Part shown: piece by piece, positions 8,846 to 40,641 of the stretch
Position numbering within the stretch: the stretch's first letter is position 1
Layout of the letters: the number at the start of each line of letters is the position of its first letter
NCBI GenBank assembly: GCA_019429005.1
Contig: JAHYJR010000001.1
Span: 136,663-200,662 of the forward strand
Length of the DNA: 64,000 nt
DNA from: Nanobdellati archaeon
GTDB taxonomy: Archaea > EX4484-52 > GLR71
Reading direction: 5' to 3'
Notes under the pieces: generated by a model
Seen by the model: the letters and a program-made list of their open reading frames with translations, nothing else
Told to the model about the DNA's origin: nothing
The model's database searches: none
Translations under genes and position numbers: made by a program

Positions 8846-9787
8846 TTATTTAAGATTTTCAAAATATTCAATAGTTTTTTTAAGACCAATATTTAATTCA
8901 ATTTTTGGTTCCCAACCCAATAATGCTTTAGCTTTTGTTATATCTGGTTTTCTTCGTGTTGGGTCATCTTCAGGTATTTCTTTAAAGATAATATTGGATT
9001 TAGATCCAATTATTTCTTTAATTTTTTCAGCCGTTTCAAGTATTGTATATTCATCAGGATTTCCAAGATTAACAACTTCTGCAGAAACGTCCGAAAACAT
9101 AAGTTTCATCAAGCCATCTACAAGGTCATCAACATAACAGAAACTTCTAGTCTGTGAACCAGAACCATATACAGTTAAATCTTCATTTTCTAATGCTTGG
9201 TTTATGAAATTTGGCATTACACGTCCATCATTTGCACGCATCCTAGGTCCGTATGTATTAAATATTCTCGCAAGCACAACATTTAAATTATATTCTCGGT
9301 GATATGCCATAGTGATTGCTTCAGCGAACCGTTTTGCTTCGTCATAACAACTTCTAGGACCTATTGGATTAACATTACCGAAATATGTCTCTTTTTGAGG
9401 ATGTTCTAAAGGGTCTCCGTATGTTTCAGAAGTTGATGCAAGTAAAAATCGTGCATTATTATTTTTTGCAATTTCAAGAATATTTTTTGTTCCGATAGAA
9501 CCTGTAAGTAATGTCTCAATAGGTATGTTTTGATAATCAATTGGTGATGCGGGAGATGCAAGGTGGAATATGTAATCAATATCTTCAAGTTCTAGGGGGT
9601 CCTGCACATCATGAATTATATTTTTAAAATTAGGATTATCTTTGTGTTGCGTTAAATTTTGTTTTGAACCTGTAATCAAATTATCTATAGATATAACTTC
9701 ATAATTCAGTTCTAATAGTTTATCAACAAGGTGGGACCCAATAAAACCCGAACCACCTGTAACAATAATTCTTTCCATTTTAATCAC
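8846..9787 (-). CDS. UDP-glucuronate decarboxylase (UDP-xylose synthase) family SDR
   Basis: TGGSGFIG; HLASPASP; ASTSETYGDP; GNVNPIGPRSCYDEAKR; RIFNTYGPRM; DDPTRRKPDI. Confidence 0.9.
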   Translation of the reverse strand: MIKMERIIVTGGSGFIGSHLVDKLLELNYEVISIDNLITGSKQNLTQHKDNPNFKNIIHDVQDPLELEDIDYIFHLASPASPIDYQNIPIETLLTGSIGTKNILEIAKNNNARFLLASTSETYGDPLEHPQKETYFGNVNPIGPRSCYDEAKRFAEAITMAYHREYNLNVVLARIFNTYGPRMRANDGRVMPNFINQALENEDLTVYGSGSQTRSFCYVDDLVDGLMKLMFSDVSAEVVNLGNPDEYTILETAEKIKEIIGSKSNIIFKEIPEDDPTRRKPDITKAKALLGWEPKIELNIGLKKTIEYFENLK

Positions 9788-10614
9788 TTATTTATCTTTT
9801 CAGCAACAGAATTCCATTCTTCTGCTAATTTTGTTATATCCTCTTGAGTCTTATCTTTAAAAAATGCCCATTGTGCTTGAAGATATGTTGCGGGTGAACC
9901 AATATCAAGCCAAGTTCCCGTATGTTTTAGGCCTATAATCTGTTCACCATTATCAATTCCAACCTGCATAGCGTCTGTTAGCTGGACCTCATTATTTCGT
10001 CCTTTAGGTGTTTTTTCAATATATTCAAAGATTTTTTGATCAAGACAGTATATGCCGATTGATGCAAAATATTTTCCATTAAATTCAAATGGTTTTTGTT
10101 CTGTCTCAGTTTGAGGTTTTTCAAATATGTCTGTAACTAGATGTAGGTTGTCTTTAATTTCTTTTAATTTAACAACACCCCATAGTTTAGGATCTTCAAC
10201 TTCGTGTAAAAGTATTGTTGCAAGTGGTCGTTCACTTTTATGGATTTTTATCATATTTTTAAGAATCTGTTTAGGTTCTATTACTGTATCTCCAAGTATA
10301 ACCATAAGTCCGAGCGTAGGGTCTCTAATCTTATTTTTACAGCAAAGAATTGCATGTCCAAGACCGCCCATTTCTGTTTGATATACAAAGTCAATATCTA
10401 TATTATGTAAATGACCATCTTTTACAAAATCCATAAGTGTTCCTTTCTTATGTCCTGTGATAATCAAACTCCTATCAATTCCACAAGCATTCATAGATTC
10501 TAATCCATGTTCAATAAGTGTTTTAGAACCACACATAAGAAGTTCTTTTGGTATTGCATCTGTAATAGGCCGTAGTCTTGTACCTTTTCCAGCCGCAGGG
10601 ATAATTCCTATCAT
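9784..10614 (-). CDS. Sugar-1-phosphate nucleotidyltransferase (RmlA/GalU/AglF-like)
   Basis: AAGKGTRLRPITDAIPKEL; GLGHAI; LGDT; FEKP; EVQLTDA; WLDIG. Confidence 0.9.
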   Translation of the reverse strand: MIGIIPAAGKGTRLRPITDAIPKELLMCGSKTLIEHGLESMNACGIDRSLIITGHKKGTLMDFVKDGHLHNIDIDFVYQTEMGGLGHAILCCKNKIRDPTLGLMVILGDTVIEPKQILKNMIKIHKSERPLATILLHEVEDPKLWGVVKLKEIKDNLHLVTDIFEKPQTETEQKPFEFNGKYFASIGIYCLDQKIFEYIEKTPKGRNNEVQLTDAMQVGIDNGEQIIGLKHTGTWLDIGSPATYLQAQWAFFKDKTQEDITKLAEEWNSVAEKINK

Positions 10615-31331: not shown

Positions 31332-33200
31332 CTATTTAACTTCTAAAAGATTCTGTCTATACCATTCATTAAATGCAAAGATATGCCACATATAAGTTGC
31401 AGTATGACCTGTTTGTTTTTTATTAATATTATTTATAATCTTTGAAACAATATTTTTATTATATATCTTTTTTATTGCGGGTTCTTCAAAACTATTTATA
31501 AATCTGTCTTTAAAATCATGTTGTATCCATTTTGTTATTGGTGTGCCATATCCCTGTTTTTTTCGATTTATGATTTCTTTTGGTAATAACTTTTTTACTG
31601 CTTTTTTAAGGATATATTTTGACACATTATTTTTCATTTTTAATTCAGGTGGGGTTGAGAACATAAATTCTATAAGTTTTTTATCTAGAAGAATAACTCG
31701 TTCTTCAACGGAATTTAACATAGTTGATTTATCTGCTTTCATTAAAAACTTTTCAGGCAACAAATTTTTACAATCTAGCCACAACATTTGATTTAATTTA
31801 TTTTTGATATTTTTGGGATAAAGGATTTTATCCGATTCGGTTATATATTCTGTATTTATTAGTTTTTTAGTTTCATTATCCGTAATGCTTTTTGTGGTAT
31901 ATTGGTGTTTATCATAAAAGTTTTTCTGTGTGAAATATAAAACGTTCCTAAATATTTTATTTTGAAATGGATCATCATTATATGGCATTCTTGAGACTGT
32001 TTTTCCAATAAGATCTTTAACTTTAGTTGGCATATCAAATAATTTAGCATATTTGAGATTCATCTTATAATTCTCATAACCCCCAAAAACCTCATCACCC
32101 CCTTCCCCCGCAAGTATAACTGTTACATCTTTTTTTGCAATCTTTGCAAGAAAATGATTAGGTATTACAGCTGCATCACCAACAGGCTCATCATAATAGT
32201 TTATGATGTTTTTCCATTCTTTTTCAAGATTCTTTTCATTTATTTGTATCTCATGATGAATTGTTCCTACATGTTCACTTACAATTTTTGCATAAGGTAA
32301 TTCAGAATTTTGATTATCAAAACCCATAGAATATGTATGAAAATCATATTCTATATGTTTTTTTGCGAGCGCAACCACGGAACTCGAATCTAACCCCCCC
32401 GATAAAAAAGCACCAACGGGCACATCACTCAAAATCTGTTTTTCTGCAGAATCTTCAAGAAGTTTTCGAGCAGTATCAATATAATATTGTTCCGGATGCT
32501 CTGTTTTATTTTCAACAATATTCCAATATTCGTTAATTTTTATATTATTTTTTGAATATATAATATATGTGCCGGGACTTAATTTTTTAATGTTTTTAAA
32601 CATTGTTTCAGTTCCTGGGACGTAACCATAATTAAAATAAGAACTCATTACATCTATATTTAATTCTGGTTTAATATCTTGATATTTATTTATCGCTTTT
32701 ATTTCCGAAGCAAAAATAAAGAGACCATCCACAAAATAATAATATAATGGTTTTATCCCTATATTATCTCTCGCTAGAATCAATTCTTTCTTTTTTGAAT
32801 CCCAGATTGCAAATGCAAAAATACCATTTAACGAATTTAAAAAGGTTTTAATATTTTTTTCAGAATTTAAATTAGTTTTTGTGAATTCTTCATAAAGATG
32901 AATTATCACTTCTGTATCAGAATTTGATTTAAATTTATGTCCTTTTTTTACCAGTTTATGTCTCAATTCTTTATAATTATAAATTTCTCCATTAAATGTA
33001 ATCCATATCGTTTCATCTTCATTAGACATTGGTTGTTTTCCATTTGTGCTTAAATCAATTATCGATAGACGTCTATGACCTAAAGAAATATTTTTATTGA
33101 TATATCTGCCATAACCATCAGGTCCTCTTTTTTGAAGTGTTTTACACATTTCTTTTAGTAATGTTTTATCTTCAAAATTAAAACCGCAAATACCACACAT
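31332..33200 (-). CDS. asnB: Asparagine synthase-like amidotransferase, copy 2
   Basis: MCGICG, RGPD, NGEIYN, LSGGLDSS, GEGGDE. Confidence 0.93.
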   Translation of the reverse strand: MCGICGFNFEDKTLLKEMCKTLQKRGPDGYGRYINKNISLGHRRLSIIDLSTNGKQPMSNEDETIWITFNGEIYNYKELRHKLVKKGHKFKSNSDTEVIIHLYEEFTKTNLNSEKNIKTFLNSLNGIFAFAIWDSKKKELILARDNIGIKPLYYYFVDGLFIFASEIKAINKYQDIKPELNIDVMSSYFNYGYVPGTETMFKNIKKLSPGTYIIYSKNNIKINEYWNIVENKTEHPEQYYIDTARKLLEDSAEKQILSDVPVGAFLSGGLDSSSVVALAKKHIEYDFHTYSMGFDNQNSELPYAKIVSEHVGTIHHEIQINEKNLEKEWKNIINYYDEPVGDAAVIPNHFLAKIAKKDVTVILAGEGGDEVFGGYENYKMNLKYAKLFDMPTKVKDLIGKTVSRMPYNDDPFQNKIFRNVLYFTQKNFYDKHQYTTKSITDNETKKLINTEYITESDKILYPKNIKNKLNQMLWLDCKNLLPEKFLMKADKSTMLNSVEERVILLDKKLIEFMFSTPPELKMKNNVSKYILKKAVKKLLPKEIINRKKQGYGTPITKWIQHDFKDRFINSFEEPAIKKIYNKNIVSKIINNINKKQTGHTATYMWHIFAFNEWYRQNLLEVK

Positions 33201-33249: not shown

Positions 33250-34296
33250 TTATTCAACAATTTTTAGAATCTTATTACCCCAATCAAACTCAAATTCTTT
33301 TTTCCGCACCAAACAAAGTTTTTGTATTTTTGAATAATTTTTAAATACAGCTTCAAGCCGTAATGTAATTGATCGAGCCGAATTAACCTCAAAAAGCAAT
33401 TCATCATAGTTTAATACTTCACGAATCCCTCCAACACCAGACCCGATACAAGGTGTATCACAACCAAGAGCTTCAAGTATGACGTTAGGACAACCTTCAG
33501 ATTGCGATGGTAATATCAATAGTTCAAATGAGTTAATATGATTTATTGCATCTTTACGCCAACCTAAAAATTCAACTTTGTTTTCAATATTTAATGTTTT
33601 TACTAATTTTTTAAGTTTTTCTTCTTCAGGACCAACACCAATTATAGTTAATTTTTTATGAATATTTGCTTTTGAAAATCCGCGAATTAACAAATCAACA
33701 TTTTTTAATTTATCTAATGTACCAACATAACCAATGTGATTATTAAGTATCTTTTGACCCACATGAATCTCAGGTATATTATTATATACAACATCAATTT
33801 TTTCGGAATCAATATTATATCGTGTAATTATTTTGTTTTTAAGATCTTCAGAGTTTGTAATGATCTTGTCTGCAGAATTAAATGTTATTTTTTGTATGAG
33901 TTTAGTAATAGCTATATTTCGTTTTTTAATCTGAGATTCAAGTAACCAGTCACCCCTAATTAATACAACTAAAGGCACATCAAATATTTTTTTGAGAATC
34001 GCACCTAAAAAACCATATACATCTCCAAAGACAATTATTTTATCAATATCTTCTTTTTTTATAACTAGGCTAGATTTAATTAGCATAGAAGAAAACAGAG
34101 TAAAATATCGTAGGTATGTGAATTTATGAAATAGTTTATTCTCGTTTAATTTATAGAATTGTCCTTTAATATTTAATTTTGTCGTTGAAACATAATATAT
34201 TTGATTTGCTGATTTCTCTAATGTGTCTAATAATGTAATTAATCGTTTTTTAAACCCCCCTTCAACATCAATCTGAAAAAATGTAAGCATTTTCAT
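33250..34296 (-). CDS. GT4 glycosyltransferase
   Basis: YVGTLDKLKN; SEGCPNVILEAL (EX7E motif). Confidence 0.9.
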   Translation of the reverse strand: MKMLTFFQIDVEGGFKKRLITLLDTLEKSANQIYYVSTTKLNIKGQFYKLNENKLFHKFTYLRYFTLFSSMLIKSSLVIKKEDIDKIIVFGDVYGFLGAILKKIFDVPLVVLIRGDWLLESQIKKRNIAITKLIQKITFNSADKIITNSEDLKNKIITRYNIDSEKIDVVYNNIPEIHVGQKILNNHIGYVGTLDKLKNVDLLIRGFSKANIHKKLTIIGVGPEEEKLKKLVKTLNIENKVEFLGWRKDAINHINSFELLILPSQSEGCPNVILEALGCDTPCIGSGVGGIREVLNYDELLFEVNSARSITLRLEAVFKNYSKIQKLCLVRKKEFEFDWGNKILKIVE

Positions 34297-34369
34297 ATTA
34301 ATTAAAGTATTTATAAATTATTTAACATTATCTAAAACAATTTAAAAACCGTTTTCTATAATATTACCT

Positions 34370-35200
34370 ATGAAAACCAGAATCTCTATGACAATATCAA
34401 AAGATCTTCTTAAAAAACTAGATTCTGTTGTAGATGGGGTTCAAGCAAGATCACGTTCCGAAGCAATTGAGAATATCTTAAACCTGTATCTTGATTCAAA
34501 TAAGGTTGCTGTTTTTCTTGCGGGTGGAAATAAAGATAACTTGAAGATTGATGGTGTTTATAAACCCTTAATTAAAATAGATGGACACTATTTAATTGAT
34601 TTTGCAATAGATAATCTCAAGAAAGCTGGATTTAGAAAAATATTTTGTATTGGGTCTGATGAAATCCTAAAAAAGATCTTCAAAGTTCTTGGAAATGGCG
34701 AAAACAACAACCTAAATATCACATATATTGAAGAAAATAAAGTACAAGGTAATGCGAAAACACTCCAGCTTGCAGAACAATACATAACCTCACCTTTTTT
34801 AGTAATACCAATAGACAATTATTTTGATTTTGATTTGAATAGTCTTTTTAGAAAACATATGCTTCATGATAGTCTTGCAACCGTTGCAGTTCAGGCGACA
34901 AGAGAAAATCTTTCAGACCTTGGTGTTGTTGAGATGTTGGGTGACAAGATTACAGGGTATGAAGAGTGTCCAAAAAATCCAAAAACGTTTATTGCATCAA
35001 CATCAATTGCAATTTATAATCCAAAAATTTTCAGTTATATTCCTAAAGGTGACATTAAGTGGGTCTTGCAGAAAGATGTTTTTCCAAAAATTGTAGCTGA
35101 ACATAAAATGTACGGTTGTATGGTTGGCGGTCCTAGATTAAATATACATACAAAAGACGACATAACAAGACTTAAAAAGATTATTTCTCATAAAAAGTAA
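34370..35200 (+). CDS. Ribbon-helix-helix (CopG/NikR-like) domain fused to a degenerate sugar-phosphate nucleotidyltransferase; putative transcription regulator
   Basis: N-terminal KTRISMTISKDLLKKLD...SRSEAIENIL (RHH pattern); NTP_transferase fold with LAGGNKDNL in place of GGxGTRL. Confidence 0.8.
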   Translation: MKTRISMTISKDLLKKLDSVVDGVQARSRSEAIENILNLYLDSNKVAVFLAGGNKDNLKIDGVYKPLIKIDGHYLIDFAIDNLKKAGFRKIFCIGSDEILKKIFKVLGNGENNNLNITYIEENKVQGNAKTLQLAEQYITSPFLVIPIDNYFDFDLNSLFRKHMLHDSLATVAVQATRENLSDLGVVEMLGDKITGYEECPKNPKTFIASTSIAIYNPKIFSYIPKGDIKWVLQKDVFPKIVAEHKMYGCMVGGPRLNIHTKDDITRLKKIISHKK

Positions 35201-35246
35201 TACTAAAGTATTACTTAGTATTAAACCGGTTTATATACTTAATACC
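35195..35246. promoter_or_regulatory. Operator-like repeat cluster and TATA box upstream of the epimerase/dehydrogenase operon
   Basis: Perfect inverted repeat AAGTAATACT-AA-AGTATTACTT (35195-35216); second AGTATTA at 35217; palindrome TAAACCGGTTTA (35222-35233) overlapping TTTATA. Confidence 0.55.
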
Positions 35247-35269
35247 AAATATTAAAATAAGTGATTTTT

Positions 35270-36199
35270 ATGGCAAAATATCTTGTAACAGGTGGCGCAG
35301 GTTTTATTGGTTCTAACATTGTTCGTGAACTTGTAAAACAAAAAGAGGAAGTTATTGTTATTGATAATCTTTTGACAGGGTATATTGAAAATATTTCAGA
35401 TATAATGGATAATATCAATTTTATTGAAGAGGATATAAGAGATTTTGATAAGATCAGACCACATTTTAACGGTGTTGATTATGTTCTTCATCAGGCAGCT
35501 TTACCTTCTGTACCAAAATCTTTATTAGACCCCATAAAATCAAACGATATAAATATTAATGGGACTTTGAATGTTCTTGAAGCATCAAAACAAGCGGGCG
35601 TAAAAAGATTAGTTTATGCTGCATCATCTTCAGCATATGGCGATACACCAACACTTCCAAAACGTGAGGATATGAAAATCAGTCCATTATCACCATACGC
35701 AGTATCTAAAGTTACAGGTGAACTTTATTCAAAAGTATATTCAAATGTTTTTGGTCTTGATACAGTCTCAATAAGATATTTCAACGTTTTTGGACCTAGA
35801 CAGGACCCAAATTCAGCATATGCAGCAGTAATTCCGAAATTCATAAAAAGCATGCTGAAAGGTGTTTCACCAACAGTATATGGTGATGGCACACAAACTA
35901 GGGATTTCACATTCATAAAAAATGTTGTGAATGCGAATATCTTAGCGACAAAAGTAAAAGAAAACCTGAATGGCGAGACTATAAATGTTGCATGTAATGA
36001 AAGAATAACATTAAATGAATTGGTCAATCTATTAAATAAACATCTTAATACGAATATAGAACCAGAATATGTTGATGAAAAAGCTGGAGATATCAAACAT
36101 TCTCTTGCAGATATCTCAAAAGCAAAACAATTGATTGGATATAGTCCAATCACATTTCTTGAAGAAGGTCTTAAAGAGACTATTAAATGGTATAATTAA
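35270..36199 (+). CDS. UDP-GlcNAc(A) 4-epimerase (WbpP/TviC-like SDR)
   Basis: TGGAGFIG; HQAALPSVPKS; AASSSAYGD; SPYAVSK; RYFNVFGPRQDP-YAAVIP. Confidence 0.9.
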   Translation: MAKYLVTGGAGFIGSNIVRELVKQKEEVIVIDNLLTGYIENISDIMDNINFIEEDIRDFDKIRPHFNGVDYVLHQAALPSVPKSLLDPIKSNDININGTLNVLEASKQAGVKRLVYAASSSAYGDTPTLPKREDMKISPLSPYAVSKVTGELYSKVYSNVFGLDTVSIRYFNVFGPRQDPNSAYAAVIPKFIKSMLKGVSPTVYGDGTQTRDFTFIKNVVNANILATKVKENLNGETINVACNERITLNELVNLLNKHLNTNIEPEYVDEKAGDIKHSLADISKAKQLIGYSPITFLEEGLKETIKWYN

Positions 36200-36208
36200 G
36201 TGATAAGT

Positions 36209-37498
36209 ATGAATCAAAAAGTCTGTGTCTGCGGTCTAGGTTATGTCGGTCTTCCTCTTGCAATAGAATTTGCAAAAAATAATCAATATACAATTGGTTT
36301 TGATGTTGATTCTAAAAAGATAAATTTACTCAAATCAGGAAAAGATCCAATTGGTGAAATTGGAGATACTATTATAAGTGCTCTTGTAAAAAACAAAGTA
36401 ATAAATTTTACACAAAACCCCTCTGACATAAAAGAAGCCGATTTCGTGATAATGGCAGTACCAACACCAATCACAAAAAACAGAAAACCCGATTTATCTT
36501 ATGTTGAAGGTGTAGCAAAAACGGTCGGTCAGAACTTAAAAATGGGTGCAATTATAATTCTTGAATCAACAGTATATCCAGGTGTTACCGAAGATATCTT
36601 AGGACCAATTCTTGAAAAAGAGTCAGGAATGACTTGCGGCACAGATTTCAAAATTGGTTACTCTCCAGAACGTATAAACCCCGGAGATACAGAGCATACG
36701 ATTGATAAAGTGATAAAAGTCGTAAGCGGTATGGACGAAGATTCAACAGATAAGATTGCAACGTTATATAGGACTGTTGCAAAAGCAGGCGTGTTCAGAG
36801 CAAAAGACATAAAGACTGCTGAAGCCGCAAAAGTTATAGAAAACATTCAACGTGATTTGAATATCGCACTTACAAACGAATTATCAATTATTTTTGATAA
36901 AATGGGAATTGACACAAAATCCGTAATTGATGCAGCCGCAACAAAATGGAATTTTCATAGGTATACACCCGGTCTTGTAGGTGGTCATTGCATACCTGTT
37001 GATCCTTATTATCTTGTCCATAAGGCAGAAGAGTTAGGATATAATCCAAAAGTAATACTTGCAGGTAGGACTATAAATGATTACATGCCAAAACATGTTG
37101 CAGAACAAGCAATTAAATGCCTTAATTCCGCAGAAAAAATAATCAAAGGTTCAAAAGTGCTTATCGCAGGACTGACTTTCAAGGAAAATGTTAAAGATAC
37201 AAGAACATCTCCCGCAAAAGACATTATAAAATATCTTAATGAATTTGAGATTGATATCTATGGATATGATCCTCTTTTAACTGATGAAGAAATAAACTCA
37301 TTCGGAATCACGTCAGCAAATACACCTTTTGGTCAGTATGATGGAATAATCATTATGAGTCCTCATGAAGAAATCAAATCGATAAATCTTAAAGATCTTA
37401 AAAACAGCATGTCTGAAAACCCTGTCATAATTGATGTCAAAGGCAGTTTAAATTTTAATGATGTTAAGTCAAACGGGTTTATATATAAAAAATTATGA
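36209..37498 (+). CDS. UDP-N-acetylhexosamine 6-dehydrogenase (WbpO/TviB/WecC-like)
   Basis: GLGYVGLPLA; AVPTP; ESTVYPG; YSPERINPG; ENIQRDLNIA; PGLVGGHCI; GLTFKEN. Confidence 0.92.
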   Translation: MNQKVCVCGLGYVGLPLAIEFAKNNQYTIGFDVDSKKINLLKSGKDPIGEIGDTIISALVKNKVINFTQNPSDIKEADFVIMAVPTPITKNRKPDLSYVEGVAKTVGQNLKMGAIIILESTVYPGVTEDILGPILEKESGMTCGTDFKIGYSPERINPGDTEHTIDKVIKVVSGMDEDSTDKIATLYRTVAKAGVFRAKDIKTAEAAKVIENIQRDLNIALTNELSIIFDKMGIDTKSVIDAAATKWNFHRYTPGLVGGHCIPVDPYYLVHKAEELGYNPKVILAGRTINDYMPKHVAEQAIKCLNSAEKIIKGSKVLIAGLTFKENVKDTRTSPAKDIIKYLNEFEIDIYGYDPLLTDEEINSFGITSANTPFGQYDGIIIMSPHEEIKSINLKDLKNSMSENPVIIDVKGSLNFNDVKSNGFIYKKL

Positions 37499-37594: not shown

Positions 37595-38746
37595 ATGAAA
37601 AAGACAATTTTGTTAACAGGTTCAAAAGAATATCCTTTTGGCACAAATCAAGGTGACGATTCAATCCCTTCAGGAGGTATTGAAGTATACACTACTCGTT
37701 TTGTGAAAGAGTTTTCAAAATATAAAAATATAAATCTAAAGATAATCACAAGAAAATTCAAAGGAACAAAATCTTATGAAAAAAAAGACAACATTGAAAT
37801 CTATCGTGTCAGTTGGATAAGGGGTTTTTTCTTAAGGAATATTTCGTTTAATTTTTTCTCATTTTTAAAATATTTAACTTTAGACTTTGATATCCTCTTT
37901 GCGACAGGACCCTTTGCAGTTCTTTTTGCTAAATTAACAAAATTACTAAAAAACAAGAAACTCGTCGCAAGACCTGCAGGAATCAGTTGCAGCCAACCAC
38001 AATACAATTCAATCTTAAGATTTGTTTTAAAACAAATTGAAATCTTAGCTTACAGAAATACGGATTGTATAGTATTTTTATCAAACGAAGAAAAAATCCA
38101 GTTCACAAAAAAGCTAGGTATCAAACCCCAAAAAGATACGATTATCCCAACTGGAATAAACATTACAGATTATGAGAATATAATTTCTGCTAAGATAAAA
38201 GATGAATTTAATCTGAAAGGAAAAACCGTTATAACTTTTATTGGACGATTGATTGAAGTTAAAGGTTTAAAATATTTGATTGATGCTGTAAAAGAAATCA
38301 AAAACAAAGACATTATAATACTTCTTGTGGGAGACGGTCCAGAAAGAATTAAATTAGAATCTTATGTTAAAAAGCAAGATTTAAAAGATAAAATAATTTT
38401 CACAGGCCAGAGATCTGATATTCCCGAGTTACTCGCATCAACAGATATTTTCATAATGCCAAGTTTGTCAGAAGGTTTACCTGCATCACTTCTTGAAGCA
38501 ATGGCGTCAGAAATACCCTCCGTTGTAACCGATATTGGACTTCCTGTTGAAAACAGAAAGACTGCTTTAGTTGTGCCATCTAAAGATTCAAAAGTTTTAG
38601 CAGATGCAATAGATGAATTGATTAAAGATCCTAAATTAGCAAGTGTTATTGGTAAAAATGCAAAAGTGCATATAAAAAACAATTTTTCATGGGATTACGC
38701 AGTTTTAAGATATAAGAAATTATTTGATAAATTATATGATAGATAA
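37595..38746 (+). CDS. GT4 glycosyltransferase
   Basis: SGGIE; FIGRLIEVKG; SEGLPASLLEAM. Confidence 0.9.
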   Translation: MKKTILLTGSKEYPFGTNQGDDSIPSGGIEVYTTRFVKEFSKYKNINLKIITRKFKGTKSYEKKDNIEIYRVSWIRGFFLRNISFNFFSFLKYLTLDFDILFATGPFAVLFAKLTKLLKNKKLVARPAGISCSQPQYNSILRFVLKQIEILAYRNTDCIVFLSNEEKIQFTKKLGIKPQKDTIIPTGINITDYENIISAKIKDEFNLKGKTVITFIGRLIEVKGLKYLIDAVKEIKNKDIIILLVGDGPERIKLESYVKKQDLKDKIIFTGQRSDIPELLASTDIFIMPSLSEGLPASLLEAMASEIPSVVTDIGLPVENRKTALVVPSKDSKVLADAIDELIKDPKLASVIGKNAKVHIKNNFSWDYAVLRYKKLFDKLYDR

Positions 38747-38757
38747 AGGGATTTGTT

Positions 38758-40641
38758 ATGTGTGGTATATGCGGTTTTTATGGTCTTGAAGATAAACCAC
38801 TAATCAAAAAAATGACAAATATTTTATCGCACCGAGGTCCCGACGATTCTGGTTATTTTATAGACAAAAACATCACTCTTGCACACAGACGTCTTAGCAT
38901 AATTGATATTAAAGGTGGTCATCAACCTATACATAACGAGGATGAGACTGTTTGGGTTGTTTTTAATGGTGAAATTTATAATTATAAAGAATTGAGGGAA
39001 CGGTTAGAAAATAAAAATCACAAGTTTTATACAAATACAGATACTGAAACAATAATCCATGCATATGAAGAATTCGGCCTTGGTTTTGTAAAACATCTTG
39101 ACGGTGATTTTGCTTTTGCTCTTTATGATAAAAATAAGAAAAGACTGATTCTTGCACGAGATAAATTAGGTGTAAAACCAATATATTATTCGAATATAGA
39201 TGACAAATTGTTATTTGCATCAGAGATAAAATCGATTCTACAATATCCTGGTTTCAAAAGAACGTTAAATATGGATGCTGTAAACGAATTTTTCACATTC
39301 ACATATCCTATTGCACCAAACACAATGTTTCAGAATATACAAATGTTACCGCCCGCAACAATCCTTATTTATGAAAACAATAAAATCCTAACTAAAAAAT
39401 ATTGGACTTTTTCAATGAAAGATGAAATATTAACCGAAAACGAAATCATAAAAAAAATCAAAAGATATCTTAATGATGCAGTTGAGAAACGTATGTTCTC
39501 CGATGTGCCTATAGGTGCATTTCTTTCAGGTGGTCTTGATTCAAGTTATGTTGTAGCTCTTATGAGCAAATTTTCAGATAATCCTGTAAATACCTTTTCA
39601 GTGTCTTTTGGTGAATCTAGCGACGAGACTAAATTTGCAAAAATCATAGCAGACAAATTTGACACAAATCATAGAGAACTTAAAGTGGATTCTTCAAAAC
39701 CAAAATTATTGCCTGAAGTCACATGGCATCTTGATACGCCTGCAGCAGATGTTGCTGCAATACCAACATACCTTATGTCTGAAGTGACATCAAAATATGT
39801 TAAAGTTGTTTTAACCGGTGACGGTGGTGATGAGGTTTTTGGTGGTTATAAAAAATATGCTATACTTTCAAACTTAAACACATTGAAAAACAAGATTCCT
39901 ACTAATTTAAAGTCAAAGATAATATCTCTTGGTGCAATGAGTGGAAAGACAACTGTTCTAAGGAGATTATTTGATAACATATCATCCCTTTCAACTGAAG
40001 ATGAATATCTTTCATATATTTCAGCGTTTACAAATGATGAAAAATTGCAAGCATTACAACCAAGTATAACTGATCAATTTAATTTAGATTCAGCTAAAAA
40101 GGTAATTCAAAAACATTTCAACGAAAATATATCTTTTACAAATAACATGATGTTTTTTGATTTAAAGACATTGCTTCCAGATGATTATCTTATGAAGGTT
40201 GATAAGATGACAATGGCAAACTCTCTTGAAGCACGAGTACCTTTTCTTGACTCAAAATTAGTTGAATTTATGGCATCCCTCAATCCAAAATATAAAGTAA
40301 ACAATTTTTCAACAAAATACATATTCAAAAAAGTTCTCAAAGAGGAAGGAATACCAAGAACAATACTGAACCGTAAAAAACACGGATTTAATGTACCAAC
40401 ATCCTCATGGCTTGATGGCGAGTTGGGTGAGATTGTATCACAATTATTCTCATCAAGACATCGCAATCCATACATTAATTCGAGATACGCACGAAAAGTT
40501 ATTCAAGATTTTAACAAATCTAAGCGATATTACAGCAAGAAATTCTGGACACTTTTCACATTTGAAATTTGGCGCAGGATGTATTTTGAACAAGAAGATA
40601 TCAAAAAACCGTTATCTTTTGATAAGTTATTATCTTTGTAA
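38758..40641 (+). CDS. asnB: Asparagine synthase-like amidotransferase, copy 3
   Basis: MCGICG, HRGPD, NGEIYN, LSGGLDSS, GDGGDE, EARVPFLD. Confidence 0.93.
   Translation: MCGICGFYGLEDKPLIKKMTNILSHRGPDDSGYFIDKNITLAHRRLSIIDIKGGHQPIHNEDETVWVVFNGEIYNYKELRERLENKNHKFYTNTDTETIIHAYEEFGLGFVKHLDGDFAFALYDKNKKRLILARDKLGVKPIYYSNIDDKLLFASEIKSILQYPGFKRTLNMDAVNEFFTFTYPIAPNTMFQNIQMLPPATILIYENNKILTKKYWTFSMKDEILTENEIIKKIKRYLNDAVEKRMFSDVPIGAFLSGGLDSSYVVALMSKFSDNPVNTFSVSFGESSDETKFAKIIADKFDTNHRELKVDSSKPKLLPEVTWHLDTPAADVAAIPTYLMSEVTSKYVKVVLTGDGGDEVFGGYKKYAILSNLNTLKNKIPTNLKSKIISLGAMSGKTTVLRRLFDNISSLSTEDEYLSYISAFTNDEKLQALQPSITDQFNLDSAKKVIQKHFNENISFTNNMMFFDLKTLLPDDYLMKVDKMTMANSLEARVPFLDSKLVEFMASLNPKYKVNNFSTKYIFKKVLKEEGIPRTILNRKKHGFNVPTSSWLDGELGEIVSQLFSSRHRNPYINSRYARKVIQDFNKSKRYYSKKFWTLFTFEIWRRMYFEQEDIKKPLSFDKLLSL

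Follow-up and report, generated by a model that had tools for sequence, protein, structure and literature searches.

The DNA analysed here, referred to throughout as the window, is a stretch of 64,000 nucleotides from a Nanobdellati archaeon (assembly GCA_019429005.1, contig JAHYJR010000001.1, positions 136,663 to 200,662 of the forward strand), whose genome comprises 1.08 Mb in 15 contigs, is 93.6% complete and has a guanine-cytosine (GC) content of 29.7%. The gene under study, P0001, lies near the middle of the window and encodes a protein in which a predicted ribbon-helix-helix (RHH) DNA-binding head is joined to a body resembling a sugar-1-phosphate nucleotidyltransferase (NT); it is referred to below as RHH-NT. 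The gene is flanked by gaps of 73 nt and 60-69 nt, and it is followed on the same strand by two genes resembling those for the synthesis of uridine diphosphate N-acetylhexosaminuronic acid (UDP-HexNAcA). The coordinates of the gene, its domains and the DNA elements discussed are given in Table 1.

The two-part architecture of the protein can be recognized at the level of both sequence and model. The Pfam family NTP_transferase matches residues 62-251 with 72 bits (cut-off 21.2) over profile positions 19-219 and, since the match begins at profile position 19, the N-terminal signature loop of the enzymes is left unmatched. The AlphaFold2 (AF2) model of the whole protein, built from an alignment with 33 homologues, reaches a predicted local distance difference test score (pLDDT) of 90.6 and a predicted template modelling score (pTM) of 0.84, and it arranges the chain as an RHH head followed by a nucleotidyltransferase fold. 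Within the head, residues 1-10 are extended and followed by helices at 11-20 and 29-43, which corresponds to a strand-helix-helix topology; in the sequence, the strand carries R4, S6 and T8, and the second helix is preceded by the N-cap R-S-R-S-E-A-I-E. A model of the isolated 46-residue domain likewise contains helices at 11-23 and 29-43 (pLDDT 75.9). When a profile made from the first 46 residues at 12 loci was searched against all PDB sequences, the top five matches were all RHH DNA-binding proteins, namely the antitoxin Rv0298 (E 2.8e-5), NikR of P. horikoshii (2.2e-4), NikR of E. coli (2.4e-4) and two CopG entries (0.065). A Foldseek search with the isolated domain is in line with this result, with NikR 2hza_A ranked first (query TM-score, TMq, of 0.70; root-mean-square deviation, rmsd, of 1.9; 36% identity over 44 columns) and the leading rows being NikR, ArtA, ParD and SvtR (TMq 0.63-0.72, E 0.24-3). 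In addition, NCBIfam gives weak NikR N-terminal matches at residues 3-44, far under the cut-off. By profile and by predicted topology, then, the head is that of an RHH protein. Its positions are also among the best conserved of the protein, with D18 found in 161, R29 in 170, S30 in 172 and E34 in 166 of 176 homologues; the family shows hardly any variation in the presumably base-contacting strand pattern R4/S6/T8 or at the helix-2 N-cap R29-S30, and a precomputed PF01402 match is present in 11 of 54 homologues. A fusion of an RHH pattern to an NTP_transferase fold had been proposed in a preliminary description of this locus, and it is confirmed here. The prediction of a homodimer from two copies of the protein gave a score of 0.27, against a mark of 0.42, and has no bearing either way.

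The body of the protein is predicted, from profiles and from the model, to adopt the sugar-1-phosphate nucleotidyltransferase fold. The closest PDB sequences to the family profile are RmlA 3hl3 (3.7e-36) and GDP-mannose pyrophosphorylases (about 1e-31), followed by GMPPA (4.3e-19) and eIF2B gamma (5e-12), and Foldseek superimposes the body on RmlA 3hl3/4ecm with a TMq of 0.75 and an rmsd of 2.3. The key positions were fixed by alignment to 3hl3: position 57 corresponds to the Arg of the G-x-G-T-R-L loop, 65 to the loop Lys, 149 and 258 to the first and second metal Asp, respectively, and 199-201 to E-K-P. The RmlA equivalents of the two metal-binding acidic residues and of the loop lysine we take to be D110, D225 and K25. 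In the window protein, G-x-G-T-R-L-x-P-x-T is replaced by LAGGNKDNLKID, EKP by EECP and W-x-D-I-G by RLNIH, so that the signature Arg (L-A-G-G-N-K-D-N-L, with N57 at its position) and the Lys of E-K-P (E199-C200-P201) are both missing. The protein still has K65, D149 and E199, with N258 at the second metal position. The paralog at 9784..10614 of the reverse strand, which scores 129.8 bits for NTP_transferase, keeps all three motifs as AAGKGTRLRPIT, FEKP and WLDIG. Both the replacements and the intact paralog agree with what had been noted before.

The degree to which these positions are relaxed can be followed across the family. Of 203 proteins collected, 147 are fused (230-330 amino acids with the RHH helix-2 motif), mostly from DPANN archaea, which are tiny and probably symbiotic, with the addition of one methanogen cluster. 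In this fused set, position 57 is R in 25 proteins, K in 45 and another residue in 77; position 65 is K in 70 and R in 40; position 200 is K in 90 and R in 15; and position 258 is N in 66, D in 43 and H in 23. Position 149 remains D in 142 and position 199 remains E in 106, and the five key positions are even loosely compatible together in 38 proteins. The unfused NTP_transferase genes of the same loci and the window, in contrast, are canonical at all key positions (7/7), including D at 258. In the close clade of 21 sequences, 49-64% identical to the window protein, position 57 (K8 R8 S3 N1 A1) and position 200 (R10 K8 C1 S1 A1) vary inside otherwise invariant motifs, the invariant residues being G52, G53, P66, L67, E122, G127-N-A-K-T131, Q133, D149, D155, E199, P201 and N258. 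The Thr of G-T-R-L is replaced by an acidic residue in 18 of the 21, and the window protein is alone among them in lacking both basic residues. The motif loss described previously is true of the window protein but less so of its relatives, most of which keep K or R at both basic positions.

A candidate DNA target for the RHH head lies at the 3' end of its own gene. The predicted operator O1, found as an inverted repeat, consists of three half-sites, the first of which shares bases with the final sense codon and the stop codon of RHH-NT, with the rest in the 60-nt spacer. Just beyond it lies the TATA-like box that, from known archaeal promoter structure, can be assigned to the epimerase/dehydrogenase operon. 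Ten clade loci (the window, L015-L022 and L024) were compared for this element, and each has GTAATAC-N4-GTATTAC-N3-GTAATAA where the RHH-NT gene ends, despite protein identities of 50-59% and GC contents of 28-56%. In clade loci, the array is directly followed by ATAG-TTATTTAAA, an element resembling the TFB-recognition element (BRE) and TATA box. A conserved operator located at the stop codon of RHH-NT and abutting the TATA box of the dehydrogenase operon in 10/10 clade loci is the new observation of this study. The motif is also concentrated in the promoter zones before and after the gene: across 13 loci, exact heptamers GTATTAC/GTAATAC occur 24 times in the 1,976 nt of these two zones and 27 times in the remaining 176,953 nt, i.e., 12.1/kb versus 0.15/kb, an 80-fold enrichment, and six of the 27 outside heptamers are the in-frame operators of L016-L018. 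In these three loci the operator lies within a C-terminal coding extension, the tail peptide ..SNTKVL.. being the translated operator, and the conserved thing is therefore the DNA and not the peptide. More precisely, the tail ..SNTKVL..NK is the translation of GTAATACTAAAGTATTAC (L016:7803-7834, L017:2023-2054, L018:7803-7834), a DNA site dictating a peptide.

Related sites are found in front of the gene and in more distant relatives. In 6/10 clade loci the own promoter of RHH-NT reads TTTAAA-[GTAATAC or GTATTAC]-N4-ATATTAC and ends 1-5 nt ahead of the ATG. In the window, a possible second site between the TATA box and the start codon of the downstream operon resembles these own-promoter sites of the relatives (GTAATAC-N4-ATATTAC), although it is weak and has a spacing of N3 instead of N4. 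The relatives with about 30% identity (L012-L014) carry GTAATAC-AAA-GTATTAC upstream. More distant clades with the strand K-E-K-I-S-V/I-T, not K-x-R-I-S-M-T, have other repeats, GTAGGATA twice and TCCTAC twice. Upstream of the gene in L005-L010 (e.g., L006:2234-2313; strand K-E-K-I-S-V-T), tandem GTAGGATAA-N-GTAGGATA repeats are flanked by two TATA-like boxes, in the spacer between RHH-NT and a divergently oriented canonical NTP_transferase and epimerase pair. Their conservation is less informative, since these loci come from one genus.

Table 1. Position of the RHH-NT gene, its predicted domains and the associated DNA elements in the window.
Feature	Position	Strand	Description	Basis
RHH-NT gene P0001	34370..35200 (stop codon included)	+	276 amino acids	Open reading frame list, translation, Pfam, AF2
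RHH DNA-binding domain (predicted)	34370..34507	+	Residues 1-46; NikR/CopG-like	
NT-like (GT-A/Rossmann-like) putative sensor domain	34508..35197	+	Residues 47-276	
Predicted operator O1	35197..35224		GTAATAC-taaa-GTATTAC-tta-GTATTAA	Found as inverted repeat
Inferred TATA-like box of the epimerase/dehydrogenase operon	35230..35237	+	TTTATATA	Read from sequence
Possible second site	35239..35255		TTAATAC-caa-ATATTAA, TATA to start codon; weak, spacing N3 not N4	
Lone half-site	34361..34367		ATATTAC, 2 nt ahead of the RHH-NT ATG; downstream of TTTAAAAA (34341-34348)	
Predicted target operon	35270..37498	+	TviC-like UDP-HexNAcA 4-epimerase and TviB-like UDP-HexNAc 6-dehydrogenase	Pfam, NCBIfam

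When these elements are considered together, RHH-NT is probably an RHH repressor that senses a nucleotide sugar and acts locally, on the TviC/TviB-like UDP-HexNAcA operon. A reading as a sensor-regulator had been put forward from the sequence before, and each of its elements that is open to computation (the RHH head, the NT body and a conserved DNA site) supports it. RHH-NT would act as a one-component transcription factor, in which two N-terminal RHH domains pair into a beta-ribbon reading the GTAATAC/GTATTAC half-sites; as three of these follow one another at intervals of about 11 bp, the protein may well bind as a dimer of dimers. The main site spans the region from the gene's own stop codon to the BRE/TATA region of the TviC/TviB-like operon and, because the array adjoins these elements, its occupancy should block the recruitment of TBP/TFB or RNA polymerase, which would mean repression. 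In relatives, autorepression would result from the second site, which separates the TATA box of the regulator gene from its ATG. The NT body would oligomerise the RHH heads and, with a pocket that is retained but has lost the phosphate-handling Arg and Lys, most likely binds without turnover a nucleotide sugar or sugar phosphate of the UDP-HexNAc/UDP-HexNAcA pathway. By analogy with nickel in NikR, this ligand may change how the RHH heads are arranged or how tightly they bind, and could either induce or co-repress. In short, a DNA-binding head and a disabled sugar enzyme most likely act together to switch the adjacent genes for cell-surface sugars.

Several points weigh against this interpretation. 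For RHH-NT, DNA binding (indirectly supported by the conserved inverted half-sites beside the gene), the oligomeric state, the ligand and the absence of catalysis are all inferred, and another factor could bind the predicted operator. The RHH-NT promoter of the window, like that of L020, retains only the half-site ATATTAC, and those of L021 and L024 contain neither half-site. Genome-wide, TAATAC-N4-GTATTA with at most one mismatch is found 9 times versus 14.2 expected, i.e., without enrichment and without support at the level of a regulon; a single exact copy, that of the locus, is found (0.5 expected), 195 copies are found at up to two mismatches versus 186 expected, and within the window the operator motif at up to three mismatches occurs 23 times versus 20 expected. 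A larger regulon in this genome was consequently dropped, as mismatched operator copies are not enriched. With the exact 16-mer palindrome unique in the 1.08-Mb genome in addition, RHH-NT is read as a local regulator. On the protein side, Pfam RHH_1 (PF01402) reaches 19.2 bits (E=1.2e-3, residues 4-42) in the window protein, just under its cut-off of 20.5, and Foldseek with the isolated RHH domain, a very short query, gives no row at E<=0.001. A basic residue is kept at position 57 in 16 of the 21 close relatives and at position 200 in 18, a complete G-x-G-[TS]-R-[LM] loop together with EKP is present in 4 of the 147 fused proteins, and the retention of K65, D149 and E199 may allow residual or altered catalysis in the family. 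The Asn at the second metal position presumably occurs in active GlmU as well.

Residues of this kind are what would be expected if RHH-NT were a bifunctional enzyme-repressor, i.e., an active, divergent pyrophosphorylase that feeds the adjacent dehydrogenase while its RHH head autoregulates the gene in the manner of BirA, NadR or PutA. The retained K65, D149 and E199, the K or R at 57 and 200 in most clade members, the four fully canonical fusions and the constant proximity of the gene to enzymes consuming nucleotide sugars all favour this option, to which we concede a minor chance. It is difficult to reconcile, however, with the window protein being the only one of 21 to lack both basic residues (N57, C200), with the acidic residue placed within the phosphate-binding loop in 18 of these 21, and with catalytic positions that vary inside invariant motifs when the unfused paralogs next door are canonical in 7/7 cases. 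Moreover, the genome already has a canonical archaeal GlmU (442 bits, above 292) adjoining a GlmM-like gene, plus two further canonical NT genes, and RHH-NT is therefore not needed as an enzyme.

A second alternative, in which the NT-like domain is an oligomerisation scaffold without any small-molecule ligand and regulation proceeds through protein level or a partner protein, appears rather improbable. Sugar nucleotidyltransferases such as RmlA are oligomeric, as the titles of PDB entries also indicate, which suits a scaffold; yet the residues invariant in the clade (the G52-G53 loop, K/R65-P-L, E122, G127-N-A-K-T, D149, E199-x-P and N258) line the pocket and are not confined to surface patches, which is the pattern expected of ligand binding. 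Finally, the protein might be an ordinary sugar nucleotidyltransferase whose N-terminal extension does not bind DNA, the DNA motif belonging to another regulator or to the promoter itself. The names that members carry in databases (pyrophosphorylase, thymidylyltransferase, guanylyltransferase) and the sub-threshold RHH_1 match point in this direction, but this explanation is very hard to maintain: the top matches of the N-terminal profile are exclusively RHH DNA-binding proteins, among 176 sequences no part of the protein is better conserved than the RHH residues, and at ten loci the motif accompanies the gene both in its own promoter and at its 3' end.

The nucleotide-sugar-sensing repressor proposed here would share features with several known systems. 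The closest parallel of the head is NikR (PDB 1q5v, 2hza, 2bj1), with which it shares the RHH pattern ..R-I/V-S/T-I-T-L...NRSEAIR.., the combination of an RHH head with a ligand-binding and oligomerising C-terminal body, and palindromic operators (here predicted) at target promoters. In contrast, the C-terminal domain of NikR binds a metal, whereas RHH-NT has an NT fold of about 230 residues and presumably binds a nucleotide sugar; its half-sites lie next to one another, with centres about 11 bp apart, and are not widely spaced as in NikR. Since the C-terminal domain differs, RHH-NT is not a member of the NikR family, and the tetramerising, metal-binding C-terminal domain of NikR with its His/Cys nickel site has no counterpart in the window protein. 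CopG, Arc and MetJ resemble RHH-NT in their DNA-contacting part, as the strand K-x-R-I-S-M-T-I-S can be aligned with residues 1-20 of CopG (1b01, E 0.065) and binding to adjacent repeated half-sites is expected, but they are proteins of about 45-100 amino acids without a large sensor domain. The joining of a DNA-binding domain to an enzyme fold is known from PutA, in which an RHH is combined with a proline catabolic enzyme, and from BirA and NadR, all of which are active enzymes. RHH-NT shares with these the link between a DNA-binding domain and an enzyme fold of the regulated pathway and, with PutA, the RHH; it differs in that they remain active, while the window protein has lost the catalytic Arg and Lys, which are relaxed family-wide, and in its enzyme class. 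For the use of the NT fold itself as a nucleotide-sugar sensor, GMPPA provides the precedent: according to PMC11228364, this non-catalytic paralogue of GDP-mannose pyrophosphorylase binds the product GDP-mannose to regulate the pathway. The NT fold is the same (7d72_A, Foldseek rank 31, TMq 0.75; profile E 4.3e-19), and GalF and eIF2B gamma are likewise non-catalytic NT folds. GMPPA, however, acts allosterically on GMPPB, has a C-terminal left-handed beta-helix and lacks a DNA-binding domain, whereas RHH-NT would act on transcription.

The distribution of RHH-NT is patchy. A word-indexed search returned 54 matches, about 50 of them full-length (263-300 amino acids); one, from a Micrarchaeota metagenome-assembled genome (MAG), is named "ribbon-helix-helix protein, CopG family", and others are named "NDP-sugar pyrophosphorylase", "glucose-1-phosphate thymidylyltransferase" or "mannose-1-phosphate guanylyltransferase". 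An exhaustive search for homologues gave 5,218 at E<=1e-3, 629 at <=1e-10 and 47 at <=1e-30. Matches at E<=1e-20 are present in 18 of 41 genomes of the same order (the window genome, G000, included) and in 1 of 9 genomes of the same family, there with 32-36% identity, while the closest homologues (50-64%) are found in MAGs outside the family and the closest related loci in Aenigmatarchaeota and other uncultured archaea. This pattern is compatible with the transfer of sugar islands among DPANN archaea. The ESM Atlas contains look-alike clusters of Aenigmatarchaeota, Nanobdellota and Woesearchaeota, and one of Methanobacteriota with RHH_1 in 80% of its members. The author of the preliminary description knew of no characterised regulator of this architecture, and a full-text literature search of papers without their supplements found no paper describing an RHH plus NTP_transferase regulator either.

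The neighbourhood of the gene is rich in sugar metabolism. The position directly upstream of UDP-HexNAcA genes, as described before, is supported, although the TviC and TviB matches remain below their equivalog cut-offs. The first gene (35270..36199, +; alternative GTG start at 35261) has TviC, UDP-GlcNAcA 4-epimerase, as its best NCBIfam match (287.6 bits, cut-off 760), and the second (36200..37498, +) matches the nucleotide-sugar dehydrogenase family TIGR03026 with 423 bits (above 189.8) and TviB with 380.9 (below 592). In the relatives, a nucleotide-sugar dehydrogenase directly follows the operator in 6/6 loci scanned (L015, L016, L017, L019, L020 and L021), but it is a different, divergent one, 27% identical to that of the window; in three relatives a second nucleotide-sugar dehydrogenase is divergent upstream. 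In L016 and L021, the divergent genes upstream of RHH-NT encode an AglM-like UDP-glucose dehydrogenase, a canonical NTP_transferase and an epimerase. L019 has the AglM-like dehydrogenase upstream too, but there the next gene beyond encodes an LPG_synthase_TM membrane protein. In distant clades, RHH-NT adjoins an NTP_transferase plus an epimerase gene in L005 and L006 and an epimerase gene in L004 and L011, but has no such neighbour in L012 and L013. The pair that is divergent beside the regulator in L016 and L021 is also present in the window, 24 kb away from it on the reverse strand (8846-10614), as the canonical GalU-like NTP_transferase (9784-10614) and an epimerase/dehydratase (8846-9787).

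In relatives, but not at the window locus, the dehydrogenase gene is followed by nadE (NAD synthase) and/or nadC (quinolinate phosphoribosyltransferase), located at L015:9202-9924, L016:9197-10770, L019:9217-9948, L020:9218-10048 and L021:9159-10774, and the supply of NAD appears to be co-transcribed there with the NAD-consuming sugar dehydrogenase. NAD sensing by RHH-NT was set aside, as the window gene has no adjoining nadE or nadC and its product has the fold of sugar-1-phosphate nucleotidyltransferases. Further out in the window, two asparagine-synthase-like glutamine amidotransferases of 622 and 627 amino acids (31332-33200, -, and 38758-40641, +) and two GT4 glycosyltransferases (33250-34296 and 37595-38746) bracket the regulator and the UDP-HexNAcA genes, which suggests a glycan island whose amidotransferases may amidate uronic acids.

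Very few transcription factors of DPANN archaea have a predicted ligand, site and target, and the locus described here offers all three as a testable circuit composed of the regulator, the operator at its stop codon and an operon predicted to supply the cell surface with UDP-HexNAc uronic acids (Table 1). Should the interpretation hold, the NT fold would be a new sensor module among RHH regulators and a transcription-level counterpart to the "dead enzyme" sensing of the GMPPA type. The pyrophosphorylase and transferase names in databases probably overstate the sugar-activating capacity of these reduced genomes; on the wider proposal given below, some of the "NDP-sugar pyrophosphorylases" annotated in such genomes would be regulators whose operators predict their regulons. 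A recognition code might also be derived, in which R or H at strand position 4 would go with GTAATAC and K with GTAGGA, as well as an evolutionary series leading from catalytically intact fusions (4/147) to pure sensors like the window protein. Taken further, and as a tentative proposal that could well turn out otherwise, RHH-NT, with this code and this series, would represent a large, unrecognised one-component family through which DPANN archaea and some methanogens sense their nucleotide-sugar pools with a retired enzyme and set the operons for surface-glycan precursors.

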